Shown here in pieces: positions 192-17,157 of a stretch of 40,316 nucleotides of DNA; position 1 is the first letter of the stretch, and the number at the start of each line of letters is the position of its first letter. Both the position numbers and the translations under genes were made by a program. The notes under the pieces were generated by a model. The model was not told where the DNA came from, did no database searches, and saw only the letters and a list, made by a program, of their open reading frames with translations. The stretch is from an uncultured virus (IMG/VR IMGVR_UViG_2061766007_000136) (Duplodnaviria; Heunggongvirae; Uroviricota; Caudoviricetes), in IMG/VR virus record IMGVR_UViG_2061766007_000136; one strand, 5' to 3'.

Positions 192-269
192 TGGCAGGAG
201 CAACAGGATTCGAACCTATACCATGAGATTTGGAGTCACATATGCTAGCCATTGAAACACCATGCTCCT
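192..269 (-). tRNA. tRNA-Trp(CCA)
   Basis: Cloverleaf, loop CT-CCA-AA, encoded CCA. Confidence 0.85.
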
Positions 270-284
270 GCTTGTCATACAATT

Positions 285-312
285 AATATACACCGACTTT
301 CTGAAAAGTCAA
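285..312 (-). promoter_or_regulatory. sigma70-like promoter
   Basis: TTGACT-N16-TATATT; one of 11 copies with the same spacing. Confidence 0.7.
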
Positions 313-318
313 GTAATC

Positions 319-425
319 AAGACACGTTTTTTTCTTGCGTTAGACCGCTCCGCCAAGCCTTTGCAGGCTACGAGATTCGAACTCGTGTCATCTTCCAGAT
401 GAGAATGATTTGCTGTCCGCGTCTT
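319..425 (-). ncRNA. RCAGCA element 2; permuted tRNA-like RNA
   Basis: AAGACGC..ACAGCAA...GTGTCTT; T-arm ACGAG-TTCGAAT-CTCGT, acceptor AGCCT-GCAA-AGGCT, then D-arm. Confidence 0.75.
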
Positions 426-436
426 ATTAAAAAACC

Positions 437-576
437 AAGGCACAGTTTTGTAATTGTCCTTCGTGTACGCCACACCACCTAGCCGTCCCTTTCGGGAGAC
501 TGCGGGATTCGAACCCGCGAGTTGCTTTCGCATGCTAAAGGATTTCATCCAAATGTATATTTGCTGCGTGTGCCTT
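437..576 (-). ncRNA. RCAGCA element 3; permuted tRNA-like RNA with variable arm
   Basis: AAGGCAC..GCAGCAA...GTGCCTT; T-arm GCGGG-TTCGAAT-CCCGC, acceptor closed by GAAA loop. Confidence 0.7.
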
Positions 577-587
577 TATGAAAATCA

Positions 588-665
588 TGGTAGCGAAGGA
601 GAGGGTCGAACTCTCAACAAATGGCTTCTAAGACCACCGCGTCTGCCAGATTGCGCCACTTCGCC
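588..665 (-). tRNA. tRNA-Leu(TAG), short variable loop
   Basis: Loop CT-TAG-AA; Leu-type D-arm; 5-nt variable region; CCA. Confidence 0.85.
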
Positions 666-668
666 ATC

Positions 669-754
669 TGGTATCTGGGGAGGGACTCGAACCCTCAAGG
701 ATTGCTCCACATGGACCTCAACCATGCGCGTCTGCCAAATTGCGCCACCCAGAC
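669..754 (-). tRNA. tRNA-Leu(GAG)
   Basis: Loop TT-GAG-GT; long variable arm; CCA. Confidence 0.9.
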
Positions 755-768
755 ATGATGTGAAAACC

Positions 769-845
769 TGATACCCACGGTGGGACTCGAACCCACAATC
801 ACCGCGTCCTGAACACGGCGCGTCTGCCGATTGCGCCACATGGGT
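769..845 (-). tRNA. tRNA-Leu(CAG), short variable loop
   Basis: Loop TT-CAG-GA; ends TCA instead of CCA. Confidence 0.8.
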
Positions 846-856
846 ATCGCAAAAGA

Positions 857-963
857 AAAAAGGGCTGGAGGTCTCGAACCTCCGATTCCTATCCACCACA
901 AGCGTTTTTCCAATGCGGGGAAGCCTAGGCTTCCAAACTTCCCTGTCCGAACTACGCCCTTTT
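857..963 (-). ncRNA. aberrant tRNA-like element
   Basis: AGGGC/GCCCT ends and T-arm GGAGG-TTCGAGA-CCTCC; no canonical anticodon arm or CCA. Confidence 0.4.
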
Positions 964-973
964 CTCAAAGGAT

Positions 974-1237
974 AAAGACGGCTACCGTGATTTCGACTGG
1001 ATTTCGTGTCCGATACGCAATCGGGATGTGCCCAGTAATCAGACGACTCCTCACCAAGGTTACTTGTTTGCAAGATTCTGTCCCGCCACAGGGTGAGTAT
1101 CACTCATACGCAGTACACGGCAGTAAAGGGATAATCCATAATTCATGAGAATTAATGCATCGCGAAGACACTGCTTGTCAGGGGGATGGGATTTAAAGCC
1201 TTGCAAGTCTTTTTCCCAATCTCTTTTTACCGTCTTT
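974..1237 (-). ncRNA. candidate ~265-nt structured RNA
   Basis: Terminal AAAGACGG/CCGTCTTT helix; internal hairpins; lies between tRNAs. Confidence 0.35.
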
Positions 1238-1254
1238 GTGAAAACTTATGTTAT

Positions 1255-1328
1255 TGGTACCACGAGAGGGACTCGAACCCTCGACCCCTGAATGGGAATC
1301 AGGAATTTTACCCCTAAACTATCATGGC
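1255..1328 (-). tRNA. tRNA-Gly(CCC)
   Basis: Loop TT-CCC-AT; CCA. Confidence 0.85.
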
Positions 1329-1356
1329 ACTTTAAAAATTGTATCTGTAAAAACCT

Positions 1357-1399
1357 TGGAGCCAGCGGTCAGGCTCGAACTGACGACCTACGCATTACC
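1357..1399 (-). tRNA. 3' half of split tRNA-Thr
   Basis: GGTAATGCGTAGGTCGTCAGTTCGAGCCTGACCGCTGGCTCCA; pairs with the 5' half at 2221-2254. Confidence 0.8.
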
Positions 1400-1400
1400 T

Positions 1401-2021
1401 TTAATAAGATTTTCCTTCTTTGTATCTTTGCATTCTCCAAAACCTTCCACTATGACGATTCTTTCCAGTAAAGGTATCAGTTTGCATATTACAATTTCCA
1501 CATATCAAACGGAAATTATCAATAGAACTATTTTCACTATTTCCATCTATATGGTCAACAACCAAAGGAATTGGTTGACCCATCCATTCTGTATTTCCGC
1601 ATATTTGGCATTTATGTCCATCTCGTTCAAGAAGAAATCGTCTAACTATCTTTCTGCTTGCTTCTCCATTTTTTCCATTTTTAAAAGAACCTGTTTCAAG
1701 AATCTCTTTCTTTATTTCATTCCATTGAAAATCATTTTGACATTGATTATTACAATATATTTTTTTCTTACTTATTGGCTTTCCGCAATACAAACAATGA
1801 TTTTCTTGTTTTCTTAAATGATTGTTATGCTTTGCTGAACAAGATTGAGAACAAAATTTGTTATAACGATGTTCATAATCTAATTCTTTTCCACATTCTT
1901 GACAAACTCTTGGAGAATCTTGATAATCTTGACGACGCTTTTCATTCGCCTGTTCTCTTTTTTCCTTTGATTTCTCCCAACCAAGCTTGCCGCATTCAGA
2001 ATAATTTAAGCCGTTTCTCAT
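1401..2021 (-). CDS. HNH homing endonuclease with N-terminal Cys-rich zinc-binding repeats
   Basis: CQICG...DHIDGN..N..N.R.ICGNCN motif; CxxC repeats; GGAGG SD. Confidence 0.9.
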   Translation of the reverse strand: MRNGLNYSECGKLGWEKSKEKREQANEKRRQDYQDSPRVCQECGKELDYEHRYNKFCSQSCSAKHNNHLRKQENHCLYCGKPISKKKIYCNNQCQNDFQWNEIKKEILETGSFKNGKNGEASRKIVRRFLLERDGHKCQICGNTEWMGQPIPLVVDHIDGNSENSSIDNFRLICGNCNMQTDTFTGKNRHSGRFWRMQRYKEGKSY

Positions 2022-2094
2022 ATTCGAACCTCCTACCGATTTTTGATTTAAAACCGCTATTATGTTCGANNNNNNNNNNNNNNNNNNNNNNNNN

Positions 2095-2166
2095 GGGATT
2101 CGAACCCCCGAAGCCGAAGCATCGGTTTACAAAACCGAACCCGTTGACCACTTGGGTAATGCTGGC
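2095..2166 (-). tRNA. tRNA-Thr(TGT) with long variable arm; 3' end in gap
   Basis: GCCAGCA acceptor; TCGGT-TT-TGT-AA-ACCGA; variable arm TGCTTCGGCT. Confidence 0.7.
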
Positions 2167-2220
2167 ATTATAAAAGATTAGCGCAATAAAAAATATGGTT
2201 TACCAACATTGTAATTTTTT

Positions 2221-2254
2221 CAGGTGCGTGGCTCTACCACTGAGCTACGCTGGC
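2221..2254 (-). tRNA. 5' half of split tRNA-Thr
   Basis: GCCAGCGTAGCTCAGTGGTAGAGCCACGCACCTG; acceptor and anticodon stems complementary to 1357-1399. Confidence 0.8.
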
Positions 2255-2266
2255 ATTGTGAAAATC

Positions 2267-2408
2267 TGGTGGGGAGCGGTAGGGTATCCCACCCCTACGA
2301 AGGCTCAACATCAGGACTCCATCGTGCATGCTATTGGAATCCCCCTAGGATGATACATCAAGCCACCGACTTCACGTGTCGGCTCCTTTGTAGCTTGGAT
2401 ACGTCCCC
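2267..2408 (-). ncRNA. 142-nt tRNA-like RNA with giant variable arm (GTG in anticodon position), ends ACCA
   Basis: GGGGACG/CGCTCCCC-ACCA; CCGAC-ACGTGAA-GTCGG; ~65-nt paired variable arm; non-canonical T-loop. Confidence 0.7.
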
Positions 2409-2421
2409 ATTGTGAAAAATC

Positions 2422-2561
2422 TAGGGCGAGGGTGGCAGAATTTCCATCTGCGACGGCTTCTCGCACGGGGCTACTTGTCGCAGTGACTTTCGCTTGTCCT
2501 TGCTTGAAGCCAGTGGCTCGTCGCGCCACTTCCTTATGACACTCCTTGGATACGACCCTCG
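2422..2561 (-). ncRNA. second ~140-nt tRNA-like RNA with giant variable arm (GAC in anticodon position)
   Basis: GAGGGT/ACCCTC; shares CGTATCCAAG..AAGGA and TGGCTT...AGCC with its neighbour. Confidence 0.65.
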
Positions 2562-2568
2562 AAAACTT

Positions 2569-2644
2569 TGGTGGTGGGGGGCGGAATCGGACCGCCGACA
2601 CAGGAATTTTCAGTCCCTTGCTCTACCGACTGAGCTACCCCACC
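2569..2644 (-). tRNA. tRNA-Phe(GAA)
   Basis: Loop CT-GAA-AA; CCA. Confidence 0.9.
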
Positions 2645-2760
2645 ATCGTGGAAAACTAAACAAGCTGAATGATGTGTGCGAATCAAAAAAGTCATAGACT
2701 GACAACTTGTTGAATTGTTTTGTCTGTGAAATTCATCCAGCTTGAAAATGTCTTTGGAAA

Positions 2761-2849
2761 ACCGCCCGTGCTAATCGCATCTTGCACCACCGTGTCACTC
2801 CAAGTTCCATCTTGGGACACAGACCGTCATGCTTACGGTATCTGGCGGT
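2761..2849 (-). ncRNA. candidate four-way-junction small RNA
   Basis: ACCGCC/GGCGGT closing stem enclosing three hairpins. Confidence 0.45.
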
Positions 2850-2853
2850 AAAA

Positions 2854-2932
2854 TGGCGAGCTATACAGGACTCGAACCTGCAAAGATTCCTCCGTGACAG
2901 GGAGGCGAGTTTACCAATTCCTCCAATAGCCC
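2854..2932 (-). tRNA. tRNA-Asp(GTC)
   Basis: Loop CT-GTC-AC; G73; CCA. Confidence 0.85.
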
Positions 2933-2969
2933 ATTAACCTTTTAGAAAACCTGTATTTTGAAAGAACTT

Positions 2970-3045
2970 TGGGCGGGAAAGAGGGAATCGAACCCTCATT
3001 TGTTGAGCCACAATCAACCGTCCTGACCATTAGACGACAACCCGC
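2970..3045 (-). tRNA. tRNA-His(GTG)
   Basis: Loop TT-GTG-GC; G-1:C73; CCA. Confidence 0.9.
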
Positions 3046-3070
3046 ATCTTGTTTTAATTGTCATGCTATT

Positions 3071-3098
3071 AATATACACCGTTTTTTCAATTTTGCAA
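3071..3098 (-). promoter_or_regulatory. sigma70-like promoter
   Basis: TTGCAA-N16-TATATT. Confidence 0.7.
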
Positions 3099-3518
3099 GT
3101 CGTCGTGTTGATTTTTTTTGATTTTTTCTTCCAATTCCCTGAAATCGCGTTGTATTTCAAGCATTTTACCTATAAACTCGTCCAGATGGATGATTCCGAT
3201 GGAAAGCGTCTTCTCTTCTCTCTCTATCGAATAGAACACGGTTTCATCGTCAACGACGACCTCTCCACCGCCTTCCAGCTCATAAATCTGACCAGTGCTA
3301 TCGAGGTATCGGCAGACCGAAATGAAAATGCCGTTCGGCAGTAGGATGTTGAAATCCACGATTCTCTTCTTCTTTCCGACATCCACGAAGCAGTCAAAAA
3401 TTTCCAGTCTTGAAATCTGACTTGCTATCTTCTCGAAAACCGCAAGGTATTCACCGTCGATTTTGCCGCCGTCGAAGTTCTTTGCGAATGATTCATATAG
3501 CTTGTCGTATGAAGTCAT
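3087..3518 (-). CDS. hypothetical protein
   Basis: 143-aa ORF with protein-like composition between tRNA blocks. Confidence 0.7.
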   Translation of the reverse strand: MTSYDKLYESFAKNFDGGKIDGEYLAVFEKIASQISRLEIFDCFVDVGKKKRIVDFNILLPNGIFISVCRYLDSTGQIYELEGGGEVVVDDETVFYSIEREEKTLSIGIIHLDEFIGKMLEIQRDFRELEEKIKKNQHDDLQN

Positions 3519-3549
3519 AGTATATAAACACCAGTATAACTAATGATTT

Positions 3550-3626
3550 TGGTCAGTCAGGAGGGATTTGAACCCCCGACCTTCTGGTCCCAAACCAGTC
3601 GTTCTACCAAGCTGAACTACTGACTG
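3550..3626 (-). tRNA. tRNA-Pro(TGG)
   Basis: Loop TT-TGG-GA; C1:G72, A73. Confidence 0.9.
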
Positions 3627-3639
3627 ACTATGAAAATCT

Positions 3640-3733
3640 TGGTCGGAGTGACAAGACTCGAACTTGCATGAAAGTGTAACACTTTGCTCCTGCACCCTAA
3701 GCAGGTCGGGAACCAATTACCGATTACACTCCG
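3640..3733 (-). tRNA. tRNA-Pro(AGG) with long variable arm
   Basis: CGGAGTG/CACTCCG-ACCA; loop TT-AGG-GT; variable arm AAAGTG-TTA-CACTTT. Confidence 0.8.
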
Positions 3734-4101
3734 ATTTTAAAAAAAATTACAGCACACGGGCAAGCCCTTAACTTGCAACCTTCGCCACAGTTTCAAGAAT
3801 CCGTTCGGATACCCACTCCATGTGACGACACTCTCAGCTTTGAGTTACTTCGCATGCTGTGCCACCCCTCTTCGGGGTTTTGCAAAGATATTATACCATT
3901 CGACTTTTTGAAGTCGTAAAAACCAAAAAAAGAGCTATAGCAGATTTCGAACTCTAACTATATTGTTACTGATGTGCTTGTTCACCTTTACACCATTTTT
4001 CCAAGTAAGAAACAATTCCCAGGACAGCCGCGGACTGCATCATAGGTACTTTCTCGAAAGAAAATTGTTTCACCTTCAGTATCTCTTTTTTTGAAAAGCC
4101 T

Positions 4102-4177
4102 TGGTACCCCCTTGCGGATTCGAACCGCAGACCAATTGATTAAGAGTCAACTGCTCTACCGACTGAGCTAAGGAGGC
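4102..4177 (-). tRNA. tRNA-Lys(CTT)
   Basis: Loop CT-CTT-AA; CCA. Confidence 0.9.
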
Positions 4178-4193
4178 ATTGAAAAAATCTTTT

Positions 4194-4272
4194 TGGTCGG
4201 AGTGGTTGGATTTGAACCAACGCTCTTTGCGTCCCGAACGCAACGACTTAAACCAGACTAGCCTACACCCCG
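4194..4272 (-). tRNA. tRNA-Pro(CGG)
   Basis: Loop TT-CGG-GA; CCA. Confidence 0.9.
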
Positions 4273-4276
4273 ATTT

Positions 4277-4351
4277 TGGTACCCCCAGTGGGTCTTGAAC
4301 CCACAACCTACTGGTTAAGAGCCAGTTGCTCTACCGTTGAGCTACGGAGGC
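4277..4351 (-). tRNA. tRNA-Lys(CTT), second copy
   Basis: Loop CT-CTT-AA; CCA. Confidence 0.9.
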
Positions 4352-4365
4352 ATTGAAAAAACTTC

Positions 4366-4500
4366 TGATGTCTTTGGCAGGACTCGAACCTGCGCATCGG
4401 GGCACTCATCCCCGTCACACTAGCCAATTGTGCNNNNNNNNNNNNNNNNNNNNNNNNNNNNNNNCGAACCCGCAACTCTACCAACTGAGTGTACAAAGAC
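4366..4500 (-). tRNA. tRNA of undetermined identity spanning an N-gap
   Basis: Acceptor GTCTTTG/CAAAGAC on either side of the gap; two non-identical D/anticodon halves. Confidence 0.45.
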
Positions 4501-4515
4501 ATCTCTTGAAAACCT

Positions 4516-4845
4516 TTATGATGTTGCAAAAATCCGTTTGATTTTCGCGAACTCCTCTTCGGAGAAGAAAGGAGCGAAACATCGGTCTAGAAAATCCTCA
4601 TTGAGAAACAACGACGTTGCCCCTGCCTTCTTGCCGACAAGAAAACCGTCATCCCGTTGTTCCAGTTCATATACCGCAGGAAGCGTTGCCACCACTTCCT
4701 GAATGGAACGCAACGTCGTGTCCACGAGCACTTCACCGATTTCATCGACCAGACGCTTGTGCATCCTAGACAGTTGCTCTGACGAAACCTGACCACGCCC
4801 CAGAAGAGCGTAGTAGATAACCATGTCCGCGCCGATGTACTTCAT
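4516..4845 (-). CDS. hypothetical protein
   Basis: 109-aa ORF with AGGAGAAGGA SD. Confidence 0.75.
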   Translation of the reverse strand: MKYIGADMVIYYALLGRGQVSSEQLSRMHKRLVDEIGEVLVDTTLRSIQEVVATLPAVYELEQRDDGFLVGKKAGATSLFLNEDFLDRCFAPFFSEEEFAKIKRIFATS

Positions 4846-4889
4846 TCCTTCTCCTGCTTTGTTTCAACTCATTCCCTTTTTAAAGAGAG

Positions 4890-4964
4890 AGCACACGACT
4901 GGATTCGAACCAGTGGTTGTACGATTTTGCAGACCGTTGCTTTGGACCACTCAGCCACGTGTGC
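4890..4964 (-). tRNA. tRNA-Cys(GCA), no encoded CCA
   Basis: Loop CT-GCA-AA; U73. Confidence 0.85.
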
Positions 4965-4983
4965 ATCTTGAAATCTTTTCTAT

Positions 4984-5011
4984 AATATACGCCACTTTTC
5001 TGATTTTGCAA
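4984..5011 (-). promoter_or_regulatory. sigma70-like promoter
   Basis: TTGCAA-N16-TATATT. Confidence 0.7.
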
Positions 5012-5020
5012 GCCGATTCG

Positions 5021-5533
5021 TCAAAATTTCTTCACTTCTTCCCATCTTTTCATTGTATCGTCAAGATTTTCGCCGTTGGCTTCGCATTCCATCTGCCTTT
5101 CAAGCTCTTCAAATCCCGCCAGAACCAGCTTTTTGGACATCTCGCATCTTTCGAGGAAATGCGCTTTCAGCTTTTCAAGCCCTTCCTTCTCCATGCCGTG
5201 CGGAATCTCAATCCCGAACGTGTCTCGTGGCTGATACATGGAAACCGCATGCGACATGGCACCGACTCTTGGATAATCCCTTTCCGTTTCTGGAACCCGC
5301 TTGTCGTCGTCGTCCATCGTCCAGAGATGAATCCCGCCATCGTAGTAGTTGCTGTCGTACTTGTTCCACGTCAGTTCATATCTGATGCCGTAGCCACTTG
5401 CCGACGTGGGCGAAACCATAAGGCGAACCACCTTGTAGTTCTTTTTCAGGCATTCATTGCAATGCTTGTTGTATTCGTCTTCGTCTTCGAACTCCGCTCC
5501 GCATATGTCGCAAATCCAGATTTCCTTTTTCAT
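5021..5533 (-). CDS. hypothetical protein with N-terminal C2H2/C2HC-like zinc finger
   Basis: WICDICGAEF...YNKHCNEC; AAGGAG SD. Confidence 0.75.
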   Translation of the reverse strand: MKKEIWICDICGAEFEDEDEYNKHCNECLKKNYKVVRLMVSPTSASGYGIRYELTWNKYDSNYYDGGIHLWTMDDDDKRVPETERDYPRVGAMSHAVSMYQPRDTFGIEIPHGMEKEGLEKLKAHFLERCEMSKKLVLAGFEELERQMECEANGENLDDTMKRWEEVKKF

Positions 5534-5561
5534 GCCGTCTCCTTTGACTGGTTTTAAAATA

Positions 5562-5639
5562 TGGTAGGAGCAATTGGATTCGAACCAATGGTATTTTGGG
5601 TGTAAACCAAACGCTCTAACCAGGCTGAGCTATGCTCCC
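5562..5639 (-). tRNA. tRNA-Val(TAC)
   Basis: Loop TT-TAC-AC; CCA. Confidence 0.9.
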
Positions 5640-5655
5640 ATTGAAAACTCTTGCT

Positions 5656-5732
5656 TGGTGAGGACGGGTGGATTCGAACCACCGACCTTGTCCATGTCAA
5701 GGACACGCTCTAGCCGACTAAGCTACGCCCTC
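5656..5732 (-). tRNA. tRNA-Val(GAC)
   Basis: Loop TT-GAC-AT; CCA. Confidence 0.9.
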
Positions 5733-5738
5733 AATATA

Positions 5739-5966
5739 TTAGAATCCGACTTCCTTCTTTGGAAGCTGAAGTATGCAGACTTCATTGCAAAGCGTCATCA
5801 GCTTGTCCCTGTCGTCGATTTTCCTCGCCTTTTCGGAGAACTCGGAGATGAACTCCTGCGAGCAACCCTGCCTCCTCAATTGTTTCTCCACTTCGCCACG
5901 GATGGATGCCCGTCCGAGGGCATGGTACTTTGACAACTTCACCTTGATGTTCGTCTGTTTCAGCAT
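5739..5966 (-). CDS. small hypothetical protein
   Basis: 75-aa ORF with AAGGA SD. Confidence 0.65.
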   Translation of the reverse strand: MLKQTNIKVKLSKYHALGRASIRGEVEKQLRRQGCSQEFISEFSEKARKIDDRDKLMTLCNEVCILQLPKKEVGF

Positions 5967-6009
5967 CGTACTGTTCCTTCTGGTTGATTAATGTTTTGAA
6001 AGCCGAACA

Positions 6010-6121
6010 GGGTTAGCTTGGATTCTATGGCGTTTCAGCCGTTGGGAATCCTAGGGAGATTTCATGTTTTCAACGAAGCATAGTGGCACTTGTTTCAAAA
6101 ATGAAACAACACAGCCAACCC
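6010..6121 (-). ncRNA. candidate ~110-nt structured RNA
   Basis: GGGTTGGCT/AGCTAACCC closing helix (G-U pair only on the minus strand) enclosing hairpins. Confidence 0.45.
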
Positions 6122-6125
6122 AAAA

Positions 6126-6202
6126 TGGTGGGGGAGAGTGGATTCGAACCACCGACCCTTTCCTTATCAGAGAAATGCTCTAACCAACTGAGCTACTCCC
6201 CC
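6126..6202 (-). tRNA. tRNA-Ile(GAT)
   Basis: Loop CT-GAT-AA; CCA. Confidence 0.9.
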
Positions 6203-6212
6203 ATTTTAAACT

Positions 6213-6289
6213 TGGTGGAACTGGCGGGACTTGAACCCGCGACCTTCTACATGCGAAGCAGGTGTTCTAGCCAACTGAACTACAGCCCC
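6213..6289 (-). tRNA. tRNA-Ala(CGC)
   Basis: Loop TT-CGC-AT; G3:U70. Confidence 0.9.
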
Positions 6290-6312
6290 ATTAAAGTTGT
6301 AAGTTGTTGATT

Positions 6313-6389
6313 TGGTGGAGCATAGGGGACTTGAACCCCTGACCTCATGCTTGCAAAGCACGCGCTCTAGCCAACTGAGCTAATGCCCC
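6313..6389 (-). tRNA. tRNA-Ala(TGC)
   Basis: Loop TT-TGC-AA; G3:U70. Confidence 0.92.
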
Positions 6390-6408
6390 ACTTAAATAAA
6401 ACTTTGAA

Positions 6409-6480
6409 CGGCTCACGCTGGACTCGAACCAAGCACCCTCTGTCTGAAGGACAGCCCTCTACCAGTTAAGCTAGTGAGTC
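6409..6480 (-). tRNA. atypical or pseudo-tRNA (TTC, Glu-like)
   Basis: Cloverleaf with loop CC-TTC-AG, bulged T-stem, no CCA. Confidence 0.5.
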
Positions 6481-6494
6481 AACGTGGAAAACTT

Positions 6495-6573
6495 TGGCGG
6501 TTCCAGAGGGATTCGAACCCTCGACCTCTAGGTTGACAACCTAACGCTCTAAAACCAACTGCGCTATGGAACC
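6495..6573 (-). tRNA. tRNA-Asp(GTC), second copy
   Basis: Loop TT-GTC-AA; G73; CCA. Confidence 0.85.
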
Positions 6574-6586
6574 GCTGTGAAATCTA

Positions 6587-6661
6587 TGGAGCGGGTGAAG
6601 GGAATTGAACCCTCATCATCGGCTTGGAGGGCCGAAGCATTGACCGTTATGCTACACCCGC
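6587..6661 (-). tRNA. tRNA-Gly(TCC)
   Basis: GCGGGTG acceptor, U73; loop CC-TCC-AA (C33). Confidence 0.88.
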
Positions 6662-6670
6662 ATCGTAAAA

Positions 6671-6746
6671 TGGTAGCACGACTCGGATTCGAACCGAGAA
6701 GCGACTCATTTTGAGTGAGCCTGATATGCCAATTCTCTATCGTGCC
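6671..6746 (-). tRNA. tRNA-Leu(CAA), short variable loop
   Basis: Loop CT-CAA-AA; 76 nt; CCA. Confidence 0.85.
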
Positions 6747-6758
6747 AAAAAACTTGTA

Positions 6759-6836
6759 TGGTAGCTGGTGAGGGACTTGAACCCACAAAACCTACAGATT
6801 ATGATTCTGTCGCTCTACCAATTGAGCTAACCAGCC
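6759..6836 (-). tRNA. tRNA-Met/Ile2(CAT)
   Basis: Loop AT-CAT-AA; CCA. Confidence 0.85.
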
Positions 6837-6851
6837 ATTGTGAAAACCTTT

Positions 6852-6928
6852 TGGTGAGCGCACTTGGATTTGAACCAAGGACAACCGCCATGTGACGACG
6901 GTGCTCTAGCCGACTGAGCTATACGCCC
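6852..6928 (-). tRNA. tRNA-Val(CAC)
   Basis: Loop GT-CAC-AT; CCA. Confidence 0.88.
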
Positions 6929-6954
6929 ATTTTGAAAACCTTATAAAACCAAAG

Positions 6955-7029
6955 ACCAAATACTGACCGTCTCGAACGTGCCTTCTCCCACACTAACGGG
7001 TGTTTTGCCTGATAAACTAAGCATTTGGT
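6955..7029 (-). ncRNA. degenerate tRNA-like element
   Basis: 10-bp terminal helix ACCAAATGCT/AGTATTTGGT, D-like arm and GTTCGAGAC loop. Confidence 0.35.
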
Positions 7030-7040
7030 TTCACGGAAAA

Positions 7041-7200
7041 AAGCCATACACCAGTGCGCACTGGCGCATGTTGTTACTAGACGTGCATTGGGGCGTTTTG
7101 TGCTTGTACAATACACCATTCTCGGTATCCCAGAGCGTTTTCGGGGGAAAGGCTCATGACTTCCTTTCTCTTGTTCCGCACTACTCACCTTCTAGTATCT
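7041..7200 (-). ncRNA. unknown structured RNA, copy A
   Basis: Homologous to 7261-7402 with compensatory changes. Confidence 0.7.
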
Positions 7201-7260
7201 ATTTTTCCAAAAGCCACAGAAGGGTTCTTTAGAAGCACCCTTACCGAAAAATCTAAAAAA

Positions 7261-7402
7261 GAGCCATGCGCCAGTGCGCCCTAACGCATGTTTTTACCAG
7301 ACGTGCTTGAGGCGTTTCATGCTATTACCAGAGCACTTTGCGGGGTGGCAGGCTCATGATTTCCCGTCCCATGTTTCCACAAATGCTCACCTTCTGGTAT
7401 CT
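7261..7402 (-). ncRNA. unknown structured RNA, copy B
   Basis: Homologous to 7041-7200. Confidence 0.7.
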
Positions 7403-7427
7403 CTTTGTTCCAGTTGAAAACCAGTTG

Positions 7428-7502
7428 TGGTAGGGGATGATAGAGTCGAACTATCGTCTGAACTTTATAAGAATTCGGTCCTAACCGTTGAACGAATCCC
7501 CC
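7428..7502 (-). tRNA. tRNA-Ile(TAT)
   Basis: Loop CT-TAT-AA; A73; CCA. Confidence 0.85.
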
Positions 7503-7523
7503 GTCATTTAAAACCTTTCTTAT

Positions 7524-7551
7524 AATATGGACTGTTTTTCCGAAAAATCAA
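7524..7551 (-). promoter_or_regulatory. sigma70-like promoter
   Basis: TTGATT-N16-CATATT. Confidence 0.6.
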
Positions 7552-7569
7552 GCCCCTTTGAAAACTTTT

Positions 7570-7644
7570 TGGCAACCCCTACTGGATTTGAACCCGTATC
7601 CTGTGGTTCAGAGCCACATATCCTGACCGTTGGACGAAGGGGTT
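7570..7644 (-). tRNA. tRNA-Gln(CTG)
   Basis: Loop CT-CTG-AA; G73; CCA. Confidence 0.85.
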
Positions 7645-7648
7645 GCTT

Positions 7649-8002
7649 TTAAATCTTGAACCAGAAATTGAGCAATGCGGTGGCGAGGTTCTCGTTCCTC
7701 GTGGAAATGGACTTCATCTCACCATCGACCATCCAGCCGTCTTCCAGCACCTTGATGTCCCTGACCTTCTTGCACTCGGCGATGATTTCCTCCGCCGTGG
7801 GAGCTGGCATCATGTTGCTTCCATCAGGGAACACATCAGACCGCCATTGGACATTCTCGCGTTCGCAAAGCTCGACCTGCTCGCCAGTGTCGTAGCTGTG
7901 GTGAATCCACACGTACACGGATTCAGGAAAAGCATTCTTCACCTTGTCGTTGTTGCACATCCCGTAGAATGGAACAAGCCCGTTGTCATTGATTATTTTC
8001 AT
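7649..8002 (-). CDS. hypothetical protein
   Basis: 117-aa ORF with GAGGAG SD. Confidence 0.75.
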   Translation of the reverse strand: MKIINDNGLVPFYGMCNNDKVKNAFPESVYVWIHHSYDTGEQVELCERENVQWRSDVFPDGSNMMPAPTAEEIIAECKKVRDIKVLEDGWMVDGEMKSISTRNENLATALLNFWFKI

Positions 8003-8023
8003 TTTGTCAACTCCTCTTTTTTT

Positions 8024-8098
8024 TGGTACCCCAGATGAGAATCGAACTCATGTCAACTGTCTGGCAGGCAGCTATACTAACCGCTGTACGACTGGAGC
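8024..8098 (-). tRNA. tRNA-Gly(GCC)
   Basis: Loop CT-GCC-AG; CCA. Confidence 0.85.
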
Positions 8099-8108
8099 AC
8101 TGTTAATA

Positions 8109-8185
8109 TGGCGTCCTTGGAGGGACTCGAACCCCCGACCTCTTGGTTCGTAGCCAAGCATTCTATCCAACTGGACTACAAGGAC
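8109..8185 (-). tRNA. tRNA-Arg(ACG)
   Basis: Loop CT-ACG-AA; CCA. Confidence 0.92.
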
Positions 8186-8215
8186 ACTTCAAAAACCATC
8201 CCTTCGAGTATCACC

Positions 8216-8267
8216 TAGACGCATTTTTCGATTAATCCTAAATCATTAAGATTGCTGTTAGCATCTA
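8216..8267 (-). ncRNA. RCAGCA element 4 (minimal form)
   Basis: TAGATGC..ACAGCAA-hairpin-AAAAAT-GCGTCTA. Confidence 0.6.
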
Positions 8268-8309
8268 ATCATCAACAACACGAAGGAGAAAGCAGTATTT
8301 TCAAAACCG

Positions 8310-8384
8310 TGGCACCTCTACTGGGAGTCGAACCCAGGTTGCTTGGCTGAGAACCAAATGTCCTGACCACTAGACGATGGAGGC
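8310..8384 (-). tRNA. tRNA-Glu(CTC)
   Basis: Loop TT-CTC-AG; CCA. Confidence 0.88.
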
Positions 8385-8421
8385 ATTGTGATATGTAAAT
8401 GTTTTGTTGTTTCCTAATTTA

Positions 8422-8497
8422 TGGCATCTCCAATGAGATTCGAACTCATGTCGTTGGGATGAAAACCCAATATCCTAGGCCTCTAGACGATGGAGAC
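8422..8497 (-). tRNA. tRNA-Glu(TTC)
   Basis: Loop TT-TTC-AT; CCA. Confidence 0.9.
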
Positions 8498-8584
8498 ATT
8501 GAAAATGGCACTTTTTTCTGTTCTTTTCCGATATTCTATAATATTTGGAGCATTTGCTCTTCGAACAGAAAAGCGTTGCAAAAG

Positions 8585-8825
8585 AAAGGAGCGACCTTTC
8601 ATCCACCAGTGCCTTGCTTGACGTGCTTCCTAGTAGCTCATTCCCAAGGTCATGGGAAGGATTGACTGACGTACATCCGTGACGGTCGGCGCAGTGGTGT
8701 CGCGGGTTCCCTAACGCCGACAAGGGAACGACCGCCATCGGTCGGACTCGGAACCGTCGAGGTTAATTTGATGTATTAATTGTAATTCCCTGTGAGAACA
8801 TGGGTCTCAACCGACCGACAATCCT
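8585..8825 (-). ncRNA. candidate structured RNA(s)
   Basis: GC-rich non-coding segment; AGGATTG/CAATCCT and TCGGTCGG/CCGACCGA helices. Confidence 0.35.
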
Positions 8826-8834
8826 CTCAAAAAC

Positions 8835-8893
8835 AAGGCTCGTTTTTTTCTATGACCAAAATATAGATTTAAGTGAGTTGCTGTATGAGCCTT
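8835..8893 (-). ncRNA. RCAGCA element 5 (minimal form)
   Basis: AAGGCTC..ACAGCAA-hairpin-A7C-GAGCCTT. Confidence 0.65.
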
Positions 8894-8901
8894 TGAAAAT
8901 C

Positions 8902-9012
8902 AAGATGCCATGTTTTTCAGCGTCCTAACCTATTAGACGAGTTCCGTAAGGAATGTCGGACTCGAACCGACATCTCTGGCGTGGTAGGCAAAAGATATGC
9001 TGTCGGCATCTT
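8902..9012 (-). ncRNA. RCAGCA element 6; permuted tRNA-like RNA
   Basis: AAGATGC..ACAGCAT; T-arm GTCGG-TTCGAGT-CCGAC, closed mini-acceptor TTCC-TTAC-GGAA, D-arm. Confidence 0.72.
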
Positions 9013-9028
9013 TCTGAAAACCTGAAAA

Positions 9029-9132
9029 CAAGACGCGGAACTCTCCGAAGAGAGGGTGTCGGGTTTGAACCGACTGGTGTTAGTTTTGCAGACTAATTTT
9101 CTCCTAAGAAGGTGATTGCTGTATGCGCCTTG
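9029..9132 (-). ncRNA. RCAGCA element 7 carrying a Cys(GCA) anticodon arm and T-arm
   Basis: AAGGCGC..ACAGCAA; TTAGT-CTGCAAA-ACTAA; GTCGG-TTCAAAC-CCGAC. Confidence 0.7.
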
Positions 9133-9154
9133 AAAAATGACTTTTGATTACTTA

Positions 9155-9228
9155 TGGTAGGCCTGGACGGTACCGACCCGTCTTCTCCAAATTAAAAGTT
9201 TGGTGCTTCACCTTAAAGCTTCAAGCCC
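9155..9228 (-). tRNA. tRNA-Lys(TTT)
   Basis: Loop CT-TTT-AA; atypical T-loop; CCA. Confidence 0.82.
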
Positions 9229-9256
9229 ACTCTAAACCAAAACCAAACTTGAAAAA

Positions 9257-9578
9257 GGTTTCCTTGCAACGTGTTGTGACACCAAAGCCCTGTCTTGACC
9301 ATCTGACCTCGCATACCGCCTGATGCTTTGCCCTTGCGTCCGCGTTCGCCTGCGATTGTCCCCAACAGCCCTCATCGGGACGGCAGGACGGCAATGGCTG
9401 TGAAGCCGTCGTCGCAACCGCCCACCATTATCGTCGTTAGGCAGTCTCCGTTAAGGCTCATGGGTTTGGCCTTGGGGTTTTTCGCAAGCGTATCAGCGTT
9501 TCCAAGGGGTCTGTCGCAATGCGACTCGGACACTCTTCAATACCGTGGGCACTTTTAACCCTAGGATTGCAGGAAACC
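9257..9578 (-). ncRNA. candidate ~320-nt structured RNA
   Basis: Terminal helix GGTTTCCTGCAA/TTGCAAGGAAACC; GC-rich; downstream of promoter 9653-9680. Confidence 0.6.
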
Positions 9579-9652
9579 AATACTGGCTTTCTATTCTAAA
9601 TATTCAGTTGTCAAAGAACTCAGGCGACCAATCCTTTTTCTGTCGCCTTTTT

Positions 9653-9680
9653 AATATGGTTCATGTTTTGCTTTTGTCAA
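9653..9680 (-). promoter_or_regulatory. sigma70-like promoter
   Basis: TTGACA-N16-CATATT. Confidence 0.7.
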
Positions 9681-9699
9681 GCAGAACAATCACATTTTA

Positions 9700-9775
9700 T
9701 GGCGGAGCTTCCGAGACTCGAACTCAGATTGACGGATTAACAGTCCGCTCTCCTAACCGATTGGAGGAAAGCTCC
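9700..9775 (-). tRNA. tRNA-Asn(GTT)
   Basis: Loop CT-GTT-AA; G73; CCA. Confidence 0.87.
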
Positions 9776-9779
9776 ATCT

Positions 9780-9857
9780 TGGCATCCTTGGTTGGACTCG
9801 AACCAACGACCCACTGCTTAGAAGGCAGTTGCTCCTATCCGACTGAGCTACAAGGAC
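9780..9857 (-). tRNA. tRNA-Arg(TCT)
   Basis: Loop CT-TCT-AA; CCA. Confidence 0.92.
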
Positions 9858-9867
9858 TTATATTTTT

Positions 9868-9944
9868 TGGCATCCTCGGTAGGACTCTAACCTACAATCT
9901 TCGGTTTCGGAAACCGATGCTCTGTACGGTTGAGCTACGAGGAC
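9868..9944 (-). tRNA. tRNA-Arg(CCG)
   Basis: Loop TT-CCG-AA; T-loop variant TTAGA; CCA. Confidence 0.87.
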
Positions 9945-9955
9945 ACTCGTGAAAC

Positions 9956-10355
9956 TGGTGGAGATGTCGGGGAACCGCCCCCCGATTCCTTGACAGCCTT
10001 AATCGCACGGATTCTTCACACGCTTGCCTTCATCCTGTTCTTGGCTGAAGATGACCTCAATCCATTTGTACTGTTCCAGAACTGCTTGGACTCGCCATTC
10101 TGGTAGGAACGCCTTTCTTTCCTTTTTCATGCCGTCCGTCCTGCGCTCGCTTGACGGCTAGCCATATCGGAATTGATTTGACACCTCACCGCTTATCCGA
10201 ATAGCGGATTTTTCCGTTGGTGCTCGCAGTCACTAAGCTGCGAGGGCGTAATCTGTATTCGCAGATATTTTTCGGTCGGGTTTTATAAGGAGCCTCCTGA
10301 CCAACTCCTGCATGCATCCATGTTTTCGACTGGAAGTCGAGTTTGTTTCATCCCC
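9956..10355 (-). ncRNA. ssrA: tmRNA
   Basis: 5' GGGGATG..TCGAC, 3' CATCTCCACCA with G3:U70; tag frame ANTDYALAA-stop at 10262-10233. Confidence 0.95.
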
Positions 10356-10434
10356 ATTTTCAAAGAGCCTTTTCCCATTGGCATCGCCAGTGGATTTCCT
10401 TTCGGAGAATCTCGTTTGATTGCCAACGTTCATT

Positions 10435-10462
10435 AATATACACCGTATTTTCGATTTTGCAA
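10435..10462 (-). promoter_or_regulatory. sigma70-like promoter upstream of tmRNA
   Basis: TTGCAA-N16-TATATT. Confidence 0.72.
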
Positions 10463-10494
10463 ATCGCTTTGTGCGATTTTTTCGATTTTTTTCT

Positions 10495-10522
10495 AATATG
10501 ACCTGTTTTTTGCGGAAGTCAA
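10495..10522 (-). promoter_or_regulatory. second tandem sigma70-like promoter
   Basis: TTGACT-N16-CATATT. Confidence 0.65.
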
Positions 10523-10542
10523 GTCATGTTGATGATTTTTTA

Positions 10543-10633
10543 TGGCGGAGGGTACAGGATTCGAACCTGTGAGCCTTTTTAGGGACTAGCGGTTTAGCAA
10601 ACCGTCGCAATAGACCAACTCTGCCAACCCTCC
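10543..10633 (-). tRNA. tRNA-Ser(GCT)
   Basis: Loop TT-GCT-AA; long variable arm; G73; CCA. Confidence 0.92.
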
Positions 10634-10640
10634 ATTGTCA

Positions 10641-10715
10641 TGGAGCCGATTCTCGGACTCGAACCGAGAACTTTCGCCTTACTAGAGCGATACTCTACCA
10701 TTGAGTTAAATCGGC
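10641..10715 (-). tRNA. tRNA-Thr(AGT)
   Basis: GCCGATT acceptor, U73; loop CT-AGT-AA. Confidence 0.88.
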
Positions 10716-11937: not shown

Positions 11938-12489
11938 TTATTCATTAAAACACTCTGGATGCTCGTCACGGTACTTGTCCATCTCCTTGTGGACTTCGAT
12001 TGCGAAGGCGACCGTCCTTTTCACGGCAATTTCAGCCGTCTTCCCCTTGAAGCACATCGTGATACCATGCTTCACGGCTTCCTCCTCGTCAGCCCCCATG
12101 CGTTTCTCGTACACACGGTCGTAGATGGTTCCAAACCTGTGCTTCATGGCGTATTGGAGTCTGCTGATGGATTCGCTCTTGAAGTCATTCTGCGGTATCA
12201 ACGCCATGTAGGTGTAATTCGGATGCATTCCGATTACATGCAGGTAGATGTTGAATGAATGGTTCTTGTAGTGAAACAACCTCTCGTACCCTGCGGAATG
12301 GGCGATGGTCATCCAGTCATTCTCGCCATAGGCATTGGGAACAAGGGTCTTGTCGTCGTCAACCGAATAGATTTCCCAAAACCCGTGGTTCAGCAACCAG
12401 TTGTGGCTTTCGGCTAATCCGTCTTCCTCTCCAATCACCGCCTGCACGAGCACTTCGTCCACGACATCGTATTTTTCCTCTTTGCTCAT
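11938..12489 (-). CDS. hypothetical protein, paralogue family A
   Basis: YDVVDEV, WLLNHGF, TAEIAVKRTVAFAI. Confidence 0.8.
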   Translation of the reverse strand: MSKEEKYDVVDEVLVQAVIGEEDGLAESHNWLLNHGFWEIYSVDDDKTLVPNAYGENDWMTIAHSAGYERLFHYKNHSFNIYLHVIGMHPNYTYMALIPQNDFKSESISRLQYAMKHRFGTIYDRVYEKRMGADEEEAVKHGITMCFKGKTAEIAVKRTVAFAIEVHKEMDKYRDEHPECFNE

Positions 12490-13040
12490 CTGAACACAAA
12501 CGCCTTTCTCTTGTACTGCGCCTCGAAGCGCATCCTGATGCTCTCCATCGCCCTGATTCCATAGGCGACCGCCTGCTTGACAGCCTCCTCAGCGGTATTG
12601 GCGACGAAACCATTGAGGCAATCAGCAGGCATGGACACCTCGAACATGTCGTAGATGTCGTTCTCCATGAAGTTACTTCTCAATGTATTGAACATGTCGC
12701 CATTGAATTTCTTTGGACTTATTTGCGAATGATACAAGCATCCATGATAGGAATCATCATCGCTTTCGCACTTGAATTCAAAATAAACATCGACATCGAA
12801 CTTAACATAGTCGCAAAAGTCCTTGACGCAGAAATTCTTGAACCTATGCAGGAATTGACGGGAAAAGCATATGGGAACCATCCACGATGTATTGCCGTTT
12901 TCAGGTCCAAAAACCTCATGGAAGTAATGGTCAAAAAGCCATTGCCTGTTCTTCGATATGTCGCACTCGGTGCCGATGGCATTCTGCGCCATCACCTCAT
13001 CCACGACATCGTATTCACTTTTTGTCTTTTTCTTCGCCAT
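12486..13040 (-). CDS. hypothetical protein, paralogue family A
   Basis: YDVVDEV, WLFDHYF, TAEEAVKQAVAYGI. Confidence 0.8.
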   Translation of the reverse strand: MAKKKTKSEYDVVDEVMAQNAIGTECDISKNRQWLFDHYFHEVFGPENGNTSWMVPICFSRQFLHRFKNFCVKDFCDYVKFDVDVYFEFKCESDDDSYHGCLYHSQISPKKFNGDMFNTLRSNFMENDIYDMFEVSMPADCLNGFVANTAEEAVKQAVAYGIRAMESIRMRFEAQYKRKAFVFR

Positions 13041-13410
13041 CGTTTTTGACATCTGTTTTATCCAATCCATTTTCAAGGAACAACTTGGGCAGGTATTCCA
13101 TGAATTCGTTTATCGCATTCAGCTTTTTCTGAAGGTACTCCATGTCCTCCTTGACGTACTCCCTGCATTTGTCCAGCTCGACCAACTGCTTCTCAACCGC
13201 GTCTGGAAAGGAAGTGCAGTCGTTTTTCTCCATTTTCCCTATCCCGAAATGGGCGTAGTTGCCACGCGAATCAAGCGATACAATTCCAAATCGGTGATTG
13301 TACGGCTGGTTCTTGTACTGTGCTGGCTTTTCCTTGAAAACGAGCCTGAACCCGTTGGATTCAAGCGTGAACGAATGCCGTCCTTCATTTTCATTCATCT
13401 CTATATTCAT
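13015..13410 (-). CDS. hypothetical protein
   Basis: 131-aa ORF in operon order. Confidence 0.75.
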   Translation of the reverse strand: MNIEMNENEGRHSFTLESNGFRLVFKEKPAQYKNQPYNHRFGIVSLDSRGNYAHFGIGKMEKNDCTSFPDAVEKQLVELDKCREYVKEDMEYLQKKLNAINEFMEYLPKLFLENGLDKTDVKNDGEEKDKK

Positions 13411-13413
13411 CTT

Positions 13414-14217: not shown

Positions 14218-14855
14218 TATGATACATATAGATTGTTGACTTTCTTTATAAACATGACGCATCTGTTCCTCGGAATCGGACTAACCATATCTTTCATATG
14301 GAGGCACATGTCTTCCTTGCTGGTGCTTATGCAACCGCACTTGCAACATCTCCTGTGGCTAAACTCAAAATCAGCTCTCAACCAGAGAAGCTCCCTGCCA
14401 TTAAAGTAGCGTCTCCATATATTCGCATCCATCCATTCCAACCCGCATGCGTACCAGATTTTCATTCCGTCCATCATCTCGCCAGTTGCCCACGACTGGG
14501 AAACTTCGATGTTCTTTGCTTGTTTCTTTGCCTGTTTCACGGTATTCACGAACCTGAACACGGAGTCCTTCGTGAAGACGTATTTCCCGCTGTTCCTGCA
14601 AAGTCCAACAAAACGCTTATCCACAATGGTATATCCGTCATCCTTAAGAGGAGTGGAGTTAATGATTTCAAAGTACATAAGCGCATCGCCATTCGTAAGA
14701 TGCTTGAAACCCTGCATATCGCCCTCTGGGGTGCATACGACGTACTCCGTCGGGTCTTCAAGCCTGACGAAATTGAAATGGAGGTCCTCATTCTCCAACC
14801 GCAGTCTCTTCATCAGGGCATGCAATCTTTTCTTCGCCTTCGCAATCAACACCAT
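14217..14855 (-). CDS. hypothetical protein, paralogue family B
   Basis: CTPE.DM..F.H...G....Y.EI.NS.P..DDGY shared with the next ORF. Confidence 0.78.
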   Translation of the reverse strand: MVLIAKAKKRLHALMKRLRLENEDLHFNFVRLEDPTEYVVCTPEGDMQGFKHLTNGDALMYFEIINSTPLKDDGYTIVDKRFVGLCRNSGKYVFTKDSVFRFVNTVKQAKKQAKNIEVSQSWATGEMMDGMKIWYACGLEWMDANIWRRYFNGRELLWLRADFEFSHRRCCKCGCISTSKEDMCLHMKDMVSPIPRNRCVMFIKKVNNLYVS

Positions 14856-14867
14856 CGGTTCATGTCC

Positions 14868-15665: not shown

Positions 15666-15671
15666 TGCTTT

Positions 15672-16751: not shown

Positions 16752-16768
16752 TTCAAAAAACTCCTTTA

Positions 16769-17137: not shown

Positions 17138-17157
17138 GCTGACTCCTTTTTACCATT

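Follow-up and report, generated by a model that had tools for sequence, protein, structure and literature searches.

A 40,316-nucleotide (nt) stretch of DNA from an uncultured Caudoviricetes virus (IMG/VR record IMGVR_UViG_2061766007_000136; the whole of it is called the window below) raises the following question: what are the two adjacent elements that, between positions 2267 and 2561, look like transfer RNA (tRNA) genes with giant variable arms? They were first noticed from the sequence letters alone, and this original prediction viewed them as a conserved class of non-canonical tRNA-like RNAs, perhaps not used in elongation. The two elements, TL1 and its paralogue TL2, are a conserved pair of tRNA-like structured RNAs that is real and maintained. 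They belong to a known kind, the tRNA-like small RNAs of phage tRNA clusters, and combine a long extra arm with an altered corner.

The minimum-energy fold of each window copy taken alone is a cloverleaf with an extra arm, located on the minus strand (Table 1). Both carry an end-closed acceptor, a D arm, a 7-nt loop on a stem of at least 5 base pairs (bp) and a T arm; as predicted, the acceptor is irregular, with a bulge in TL1 and a mismatch in TL2 (one C.C mismatch in GAGGGTCG when the acceptor is set in the TL1 register). They also show the class II arrangement, i.e. a 3-bp D stem and, immediately 3' of the anticodon stem, a paired extra arm. The stems common to both are the D stem (3 bp), the stem of the 7-nt loop (6 bp) and a T-like stem (5–6 bp), and the blocks CGTATCCAAG, AAGGA and TGGCTT match exactly between the two copies. 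The acceptor and T stems add up to 13 layers in both cases (7+6 in TL1, 8+5 in TL2). The expected tandem pair of about 140 nt (142 and 138 nt) with a shared D region CGTATCCAAG...AAGGA is therefore found, with small corrections elsewhere: the anticodon arm, announced as 5 bp with a 7-nt loop, has this loop but a stem of 6 bp if the closing pair (G.U in TL1, A-U in TL2) is counted; the variable arm is giant and paired but measures 63 and 57 nt instead of about 60–65 nt; and of its announced bounds TGGCTT...AGCC, the first is exact whereas the 3' AGCC is not conserved, being GGTC in the relative L123 described below, where it is still paired through G.U.

Several features set the pair apart from the tRNAs that surround it. 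Position 33 is C in both elements, so that U33 is absent, and the T loop is UGGRA in both (GTGGGATA in TL1, TGGAAAT in TL2), without TTC, in agreement with the predicted lack of TTCRA. The D loop of TL1 has no GG and that of TL2 has no conserved GG. TL1 is the one element that ends in ACCA, as had been said; TL2 ends in GCCC(T) and its variant from the metagenome run X4 in CCCA (these ends are those of the genomic sequence). Among the 36 tRNAs of the array, 33 have a CCA end, 35 have U33 and 34 have a GTTC T-loop motif, the exceptions to the latter being tRNA-Phe (GTCC) and one tRNA-Arg (GTTA). Because T-loop TTC, U33 and a conserved D-loop GG are missing when compared with these 36 tRNAs, we infer that TL1 and TL2 are not used in elongation.

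The tRNA likeness was examined with tRNA finders and covariance models. ARAGORN, one of the checks that had been proposed, calls neither TL1 nor TL2, which bears out their non-canonical status. Rfam gives no match to either of them at the gathering score and, over positions 1950–2700, no match to RF00005 at E<=10; at this threshold, the matches touching TL sequence in that region are only tmRNA_permuted (10.7 bits, E 9), overlapping tRNA-Phe and the 5' end of TL2, and an unrelated long non-coding RNA model (10.5 bits, E 4.6). A covariance model built from TL1 alone (R1) matches TL2 with 29.1 bits (E 3.4e-5 in the 40-kb window). Thirty other R1 matches were obtained at E<=10, 23 of which, including all the top nine, overlap tRNA genes. 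Likewise, 12 of the 13 further matches in the window to the two-copy model (R2) are tRNAs. In other phage DNA, the best R2 match is the tRNA-Tyr of BcepSaruman, which has a long extra arm (33.6 bits), followed by another tRNA-Tyr with a long extra arm from the IMG/VR contig L105 (30.2 bits), a Cys-anticodon tRNA of ordinary length without long arm from contig L119 (26.5 bits) and the long-armed, 87-nt tRNA-Lys(CUU) of CcrBL9 (26.0 bits). Long-armed tRNAs thus make up three of the four best matches outside the family (26–34 bits), and the tRNA regions of six cultured phages and T4 (242 kb) gave two long-armed tRNAs and nothing else. The L105 and L119 tRNAs have a D arm of the same sequence type as the TLs (CGUAUCCAAG...AAGGA). 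The search for homologues with covariance models therefore recovers TL2 from TL1 and the two orthologues in L123, with tRNAs coming next. Because these next matches of R1 and R2 are tRNAs, the best of them long-armed, TL1 and TL2 probably descend from a tRNA, most likely a long-armed one (class II shape) of the Tyr type.

Relatives were sought with motif patterns, the wider searches being pre-filtered by exact motifs before covariance scoring. A strict pattern gave no match in IMG/VR, none in the species genomes and one metagenome contig, L123. In IMG/VR, a loose D-arm pattern gave at least 120 loci, and the best of the 120 screened with R2 were the L105 tRNA-Tyr and the L119 Cys-anticodon tRNA; a four-block pattern gave one chance match (L122) and a relaxed pattern 23 loci without any family member. 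L123 carries a syntenic tRNA array in which both TLs lie between tRNA-Phe and tRNA-Thr, as in the window, and score 158 and 114 bits with R2. TL1 is conserved like the best-kept tRNAs (Table 1). The anticodon-like arm of TL2 does not differ at all between the window and L123, despite the lower overall identity of this element, and its D loop differs at 7 of 9 positions.

Further variants came from sequencing runs. At least half of the sampled words of positions 2100–3100 are present in three runs, and 20 runs (14 studies) are listed with part of the stretch, most shares being small; by their record labels, the listed runs are mostly animal-gut metagenomes, several of them bovine. The TL-bearing lineage has thus so far been seen in animal-gut metagenomes. 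Four runs were examined, two of DNA (X3 and X4) and two from RNA libraries (X19, from sheep gut, and X17). X3 and X4 each gave a contig through both elements, with 6 and 15 differences from the window. X19 gave a 313-nt contig covering 2268–2535 with 20 differences, of the L123 type at every listed difference, and unbroken through both long arms. No contig on 2270–2575 was obtained from X17, which is not evidence of absence. A joint skipping the arm was found in none of the four runs. Both copies are retained in all five haplotypes (window, L123, X19, X3 and X4). The conservation that had been proposed is therefore supported by orthologues of both elements at the same place in L123 and by the variants in X3, X4 and X19; the word "class" holds for a conserved pair of non-canonical tRNA-like RNAs, with members found in one phage lineage only.

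Comparison of these five haplotypes shows that sequence diverges while pairing is kept, as had been noted for the two copies: 10 paired positions are substituted and no pair is broken under the consensus fold, with two full compensatory swaps and six single changes to or from G.U. TL1 has five variable positions, three in loops and two in stems (2383, G.U to A-U; 2309, U.G to U-A). In TL2, eight substituted stem positions fall in six pairs and pairing is kept in all of them. These are the T stem (2447/2439, A-U to G-C in L123, X19 and X4), the arm hairpin (2485/2479, C-G to U-A in X3 and X4), the arm base (2458 and 2456, U-A to U.G and G-C to G.U), the acceptor (2559, A-U to G.U in X3) and the closing pair of the anticodon stem (2530, A-U to G.U in X3). 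As positions 2559 and 2530 (changed in X3) and 2485/2479 (changed in X3 and X4) are identical in both sequences from which the fold was derived, these changes test it independently. The remaining changes of TL2 are unpaired: they affect the D loop, internal loops within the arm, the tail and the T loop, where an A to G change produces the UGGGA seen in TL1. Both 7-nt loops are untouched by variants among the differences listed. A single transition has a one-in-two chance of leaving a Watson-Crick pair paired, and G.U pairing is available to the minus-strand RNA only; six of six single changes that keep pairing, together with two double swaps, hence point to selection on the fold of the minus-strand RNA. 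In a four-sequence alignment (A8), 96.4% of the pair cells are paired, compared with 35–52% when partners are slid, and the comparison of the paralogues gives 8 pairs changed on both sides versus 0–1 in the slid controls. The anticodon-like hairpin is the part most strongly held by selection, which also preserves the acceptor end, U8-A9, the D stem (with A14 and R15) and the arm base; drift is seen in the D loop and in the long-arm loops.

The window is phage DNA with genes on the minus strand, most open reading frames (ORFs) of which have no family match; the products that could be named include a DNA methylase, an HNH endonuclease and an RNA ligase (35259–36323), which shares only 35–39% identity with cyanophage and Burkholderia jumbo phage ligases. 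Against 50,697 phage records, blastn found no nucleotide match for positions 12000–19900 and tRNA-Phe as the sole match for 1900–3100; no relatives of the ORFs 3087–3518 and 5021–5533, near the TL pair, were found in IMG/VR. The tRNA array (192–10715) contains 36 minus-strand tRNA genes according to ARAGORN and about 37 in total, all on the same strand as TL1 and TL2. Canonical tRNA-His(GUG) and tRNA-Val(GAC) are already present in it. A leader of the RGWTTTTCAMAAT type recurs in the array spacers, stopping a few bases short of many tRNA 5' ends: TTTC is found within 16 nt upstream of 15 of the 36 tRNAs as well as of TL1 and TL2, for a background of 6.7% in random 16-mers. This leader may be a processing or punctuation signal. 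On the minus strand from 3063 to 1905, neither a promoter-like nor a terminator-like site was found.

Table 1. Coordinates of the TL pair, its neighbours and its counterparts in contig L123
Feature	Position	Strand	Description
TL1, tRNA-like RNA gene	2267-2408	minus	142 nt; ends ACCA
TL1 acceptor 5' strand	2408-2402	minus	GGGGACG
TL1 D arm	2399-2384	minus	TCC-10 nt-GGA
TL1 anticodon-like arm	2383-2365	minus	GCCGAC-ACGTGAA-GTCGGT; loop ACGUGAA 2377-2371
TL1 extra arm	2364-2302	minus	63 nt, then TTC
TL1 T-like arm	2298-2279	minus	GTAGGG-GTGGGATA-CCCTAC
TL1 acceptor 3' strand	2278-2271	minus	CG-C-TCCCC, one bulged C
TL1 ACCA end	2270-2267	minus	
TL2, TL1 paralogue	2424-2561	minus	138 nt; ends GCCC
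TL2 acceptor	2561-2555 / 2433-2427	minus	CGAGGGT/ACCCTCG, 7 bp
TL2 D arm	2550-2531	minus	TCC-14 nt-GGA; loop highly variable among relatives
TL2 anticodon-like arm	2530-2512	minus	AGTGGC-GCGACGA-GCCACT; loop GCGACGA 2524-2518
TL2 extra arm	2511-2455	minus	57 nt, then GTC
TL2 T-like arm	2451-2435	minus	GCAGA-TGGAAAT-TCTGC
TL2 tail CCC	2426-2424	minus	
tRNA-Phe(GAA), canonical	2569-2644	minus	directly upstream of TL2; presumed co-transcribed
Spacer tRNA-Phe/TL2	2562-2568	minus	7 nt, AAGTTTT; TL2 base 2561 supplies the C completing TTTC
Spacer TL2/TL1	2409-2423	minus	15 nt, TAGATTTTTCACAAT; carries TTTC-containing leader motif
tRNA-Thr(UGU) 5' half	2221-2254	minus	directly downstream of TL1; gene cut in the anticodon by an insertion
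TL1 orthologue	L123:2011-2152		137/142 identical (96.5%)
TL2 orthologue	L123:2168-2305		118/138 identical (85.5%)
tRNAs, window vs L123			70-99% identical: Gly-CCC 98.6, Asp 98.7, Pro-AGG 98.9, Leu-GAG 96.5, Cys 88.5, His 70.1
Two non-coding stretches, window vs L123			83.2% and 70.0% identical
ORF, window vs L123	3087-3518		89.4% identical

Several observations concern the neighbourhood of the pair and its array. The tRNA-Thr(UGU) gene that follows TL1 carries an insertion of about 820 nt within its anticodon and is thereby split in two (5' half from 2254 to about 2221, 3' half from about 1403 to 1355, minus strand). The insertion holds an HNH endonuclease ORF (1401–2021), the TAA stop of which is built from anticodon-loop bases of the interrupted tRNA, and a tRNA-Tyr(GUA) (about 2085–2165, partly N-masked). 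It matched no group I intron model and has the appearance of a homing-endonuclease cassette carrying a tRNA as cargo. L123 does not have it: its tRNA-Thr(UGU) is intact and likewise follows TL1 (L123:1926–2000). Upstream of TL2, L123 has two tRNA-Phe(GAA) (2314–2390 and 2407–2482), 70% and 82% identical to the single copy of the window. Elsewhere in the array, the tRNA-Pro(AGG) (3640–3733, minus strand) measures 94 nt and has an extra arm that is paired, Pro tRNAs being normally short-armed; its L123 counterpart (3518–3611) is 98.9% identical and L123 also has a 93-nt tRNA-Pro(UGG) (3398–3490). The stretch 9158–9228 (minus strand) is a tRNA according to Rfam (46.8 bits) without ARAGORN call, and has an unusual T loop (GGGTCGGTACCGTCC), the anticodon loop CTTTTAA and no CCA end. 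Two near-identical, G+C-rich hairpins of 26 nt, each followed by T runs (CATGCG...GCGCACTGG...), at 7045–7070 and 7265–7290 on the minus strand, lie 220 nt apart in the array and are terminator-like repeats. Outside the array, a 359-aa ORF (15672–16751, minus strand) combines an N-terminal phosphohydrolase-like part and a cytidylyltransferase-like domain (NMN/pantetheine-phosphate adenylyltransferase type), and its relatives belong to huge uncultured phages and to Caulobacter and Brevundimonas phages.

From these data, a scenario that we favour with moderate confidence can be drawn: TL1 and TL2 would be stable tRNA mimics that derive from a tRNA, are processed together with tRNAs, do not decode and might bind a protein that recognises tRNAs. 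The arm of a class II-shaped ancestor would have grown to 57–63 nt, and the tRNA corner (D-loop GG, T-loop TTC) would have been lost or remodelled. The pair would be co-transcribed with the neighbouring tRNA genes and released by tRNA-processing enzymes, RNase P acting at the 5' end and trimming followed by CCA repair at the 3' end, for which TL1 already encodes ACCA; co-transcription and release of this type are suggested because the leader is common to the array, the spacers are of only 7 and 15 nt and no promoter- or terminator-like site was found. More speculatively, the released RNAs might bind or titrate either a host tRNA-cutting defence enzyme or an enzyme that processes or modifies tRNAs, and the long arm might be an added handle. 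No antisense target was detected in the window, the longest TL-complementary stretches (at least 10 nt being sought) in its minus-strand transcripts reaching 10–11 nt, as in shuffles. A bolder version can be offered only tentatively and is on the whole doubtful. It regards the pair as a new class of phage tRNA mimics with a long-armed body that has lost the elements recognised by the ribosome and at the elbow, a processable and perhaps chargeable acceptor end, an invariant anticodon-like hairpin and a 60-nt arm module. Such RNAs would have a role other than translation: they could, for instance, serve as decoys or inhibitors of a host immune nuclease that targets tRNAs, or as adaptors bringing a tRNA enzyme to a new task.

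A number of points weigh against the favoured scenario or against the fold on which it is built. The folding energies are ordinary when compared with shuffles (z of -1.0 and -1.5 for the two elements). The inner TL2 arm is ill-defined, 8 substitutions lie at positions left unpaired, and the minimum-energy fold of the L123 copy of TL2 is not a cloverleaf (-54.9 kcal/mol, versus -51.5 for a cloverleaf with the arm refolded). In TL1, the substituted pair at 2309 survives only under the consensus of window and L123, a fold that the same sequence helped to define, and the change breaks the terminal C-G pair in the arm fold obtained from the window only. The A8 alignment had been adjusted to the structure, the haplotypes are closely related and represent few independent events, and 5 differences lie outside the listed set. 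No homologue was found beyond one phage lineage by the motif-prefiltered searches. The X19 contig is a weak hint of TL transcription and possibly results from DNA carry-over, as the intergenic region 2733–2853 shows a similar depth. Lastly, C33 also occurs in otherwise ordinary tRNAs, namely tRNA-Gly(UCC) of the window (6587–6661, minus strand, loop CCTCCAA) and tRNA-Thr(UGU) of L123 (1926–2000, loop CCTGTAA).

Other explanations account for part of these data. TL1 and TL2 could be working elongator tRNAs with extreme long arms that read His (GUG) and Val (GAC) codons and escape host tRNA-cutting enzymes. The 7-nt loop on a 6-bp stem is invariant across the haplotypes (among the differences listed), TL1 has an acceptor stem and ACCA, the TL2 tail becomes C-CCA in X4, where it follows a perfect 7-bp stem, and phage arrays do hold long-armed tRNAs with usually short-armed anticodons, such as the 94-nt tRNA-Pro(AGG) of the window and the 87-nt tRNA-Lys(CUU) of CcrBL9. 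This explanation nevertheless appears unlikely given C33 in place of U33, UGGRA in place of UUCRA, a D loop without a conserved GG (changed at 7 of 9 positions between relatives in TL2), a bulged or mismatched acceptor stem and the presence in the array of canonical tRNAs with both anticodons. The arm could also be an intervening sequence that is excised before the ends are rejoined, for instance by the RNA ligase that the phage encodes, yielding an RNA of ordinary tRNA size; the arm is indeed a self-contained helix at the variable-loop site. It is very improbable that this happens: no arm-skipping joint was found in the four runs and the X19 contig runs unbroken through both arms, no intron family of Rfam matches, and the arm-less RNA would still be devoid of T-loop TTC and U33.

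That the two elements are decaying tRNA pseudogenes or functionless duplication debris might be suspected from the adjoining tRNA-Thr gene broken by an insertion, from the failure of tRNA finders to detect them and from their ordinary fold energies. However, TL1 is 96.5% identical to its orthologue, versus 70–83% for spacers, both copies are kept in five haplotypes, and none of the 10 stem substitutions breaks a pair, two swaps being compensatory. Of the two signs of decayed pseudogenes that had been named, no homologues and no stable transcript, the first is not observed, and orthologues together with pairing-preserving substitutions rule out such decay, to which we give hardly any credit. 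The least probable explanation is a small protein, encoded by a 96-codon ORF (2311–2601, minus strand) that overlaps both elements. Its frame is uninterrupted in both the window and L123; of the four changes that X3/X4 show at 2479–2488, three are synonymous in it, and several variant sites occupy third codon positions. However, two of these four changes (2485/2479) make up a compensatory RNA pair, the window and L123 differ at 13 of 84 residues, and the ratio of non-synonymous to synonymous changes (pN/pS, window versus L123) is 0.73, versus 1.10 and 0.64 in the other two frames, which indicates no coding constraint. The sole start is a GTG inside tRNA-Phe, and L123 has no start at the matching place; the coding reading was rejected.

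The favoured reading, in which the pair consists of tRNA mimics, can be compared with several known RNAs; a word search of the literature found no description of such long-armed tRNA-like RNAs, which may still exist in print. YrlA RNAs, some of which are phage-borne, have ends that form a Ro-binding stem and a canonical T arm, and a YrlA model is included among the Rfam families. These bacterial Y-RNA-like, Ro60-bound RNAs resemble the TLs in being non-coding tRNA mimics (PMC4201824). They differ in that the TL region matched no Rfam family of any kind at E<=10, apart from the two matches given above. Engineered aptamer-tagged tRNAs also combine a tRNA body and a functional hairpin in the variable arm (PMC7590224); these are synthetic and reportedly still active in translation, whereas the TLs have a remodelled corner.

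Class II tRNAs (bacterial and phage tRNA-Tyr, and the long-armed Lys, Pro and Ile tRNAs of phages) share with the TLs an extra arm that starts right after the anticodon stem, and a 3-bp D stem of the CGTATCCAAG...AAGGA type is also found in the L105 tRNA-Tyr and in the L119 Cys-anticodon tRNA. The extra arm of ordinary class II tRNAs is of roughly 13–25 nt, in contrast to 57–63 nt in the TLs, which also differ by the missing T-loop TTC, U33 and conserved D-loop GG, by an irregular acceptor and by not being called by finders. Standard tRNA finders therefore overlook conserved tRNA-shaped genes in phage arrays, at a time when phage tRNA clusters are read as tools against the tRNA-cutting defences of the host.

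By its setting, the nearest analogue is the rnaC/rnaD pair of T4, without detectable homology: R2 gave no match on positions 68000–76000 of T4 (E<=0.1). These are also tandem small RNAs (139 and 119 nt): they close the T4 tRNA cluster on the tRNA strand, next to the homing endonuclease gene segB, and the two ends of rnaC form an acceptor-like pairing. Unlike the TLs, rnaC has a canonical GGTTCGAATCC T arm and no anticodon-like 7-nt hairpin at that position, and the fold of rnaD is not tRNA-like. According to two reports, the roles of these species 1 and species 2 RNAs are still unknown (PMC3014915; PMC12685909). The TL pair is a second, independent case beside these two T4 cluster RNAs that have been unexplained for decades, and it has a clear tRNA-like shape; the tRNA features that it has lost or retained are defined, and natural variation marks the acceptor end, the junction and the anticodon-like hairpin as the selected parts. 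These defined features and this variation make specific experiments possible on processing, charging and partner pull-down.

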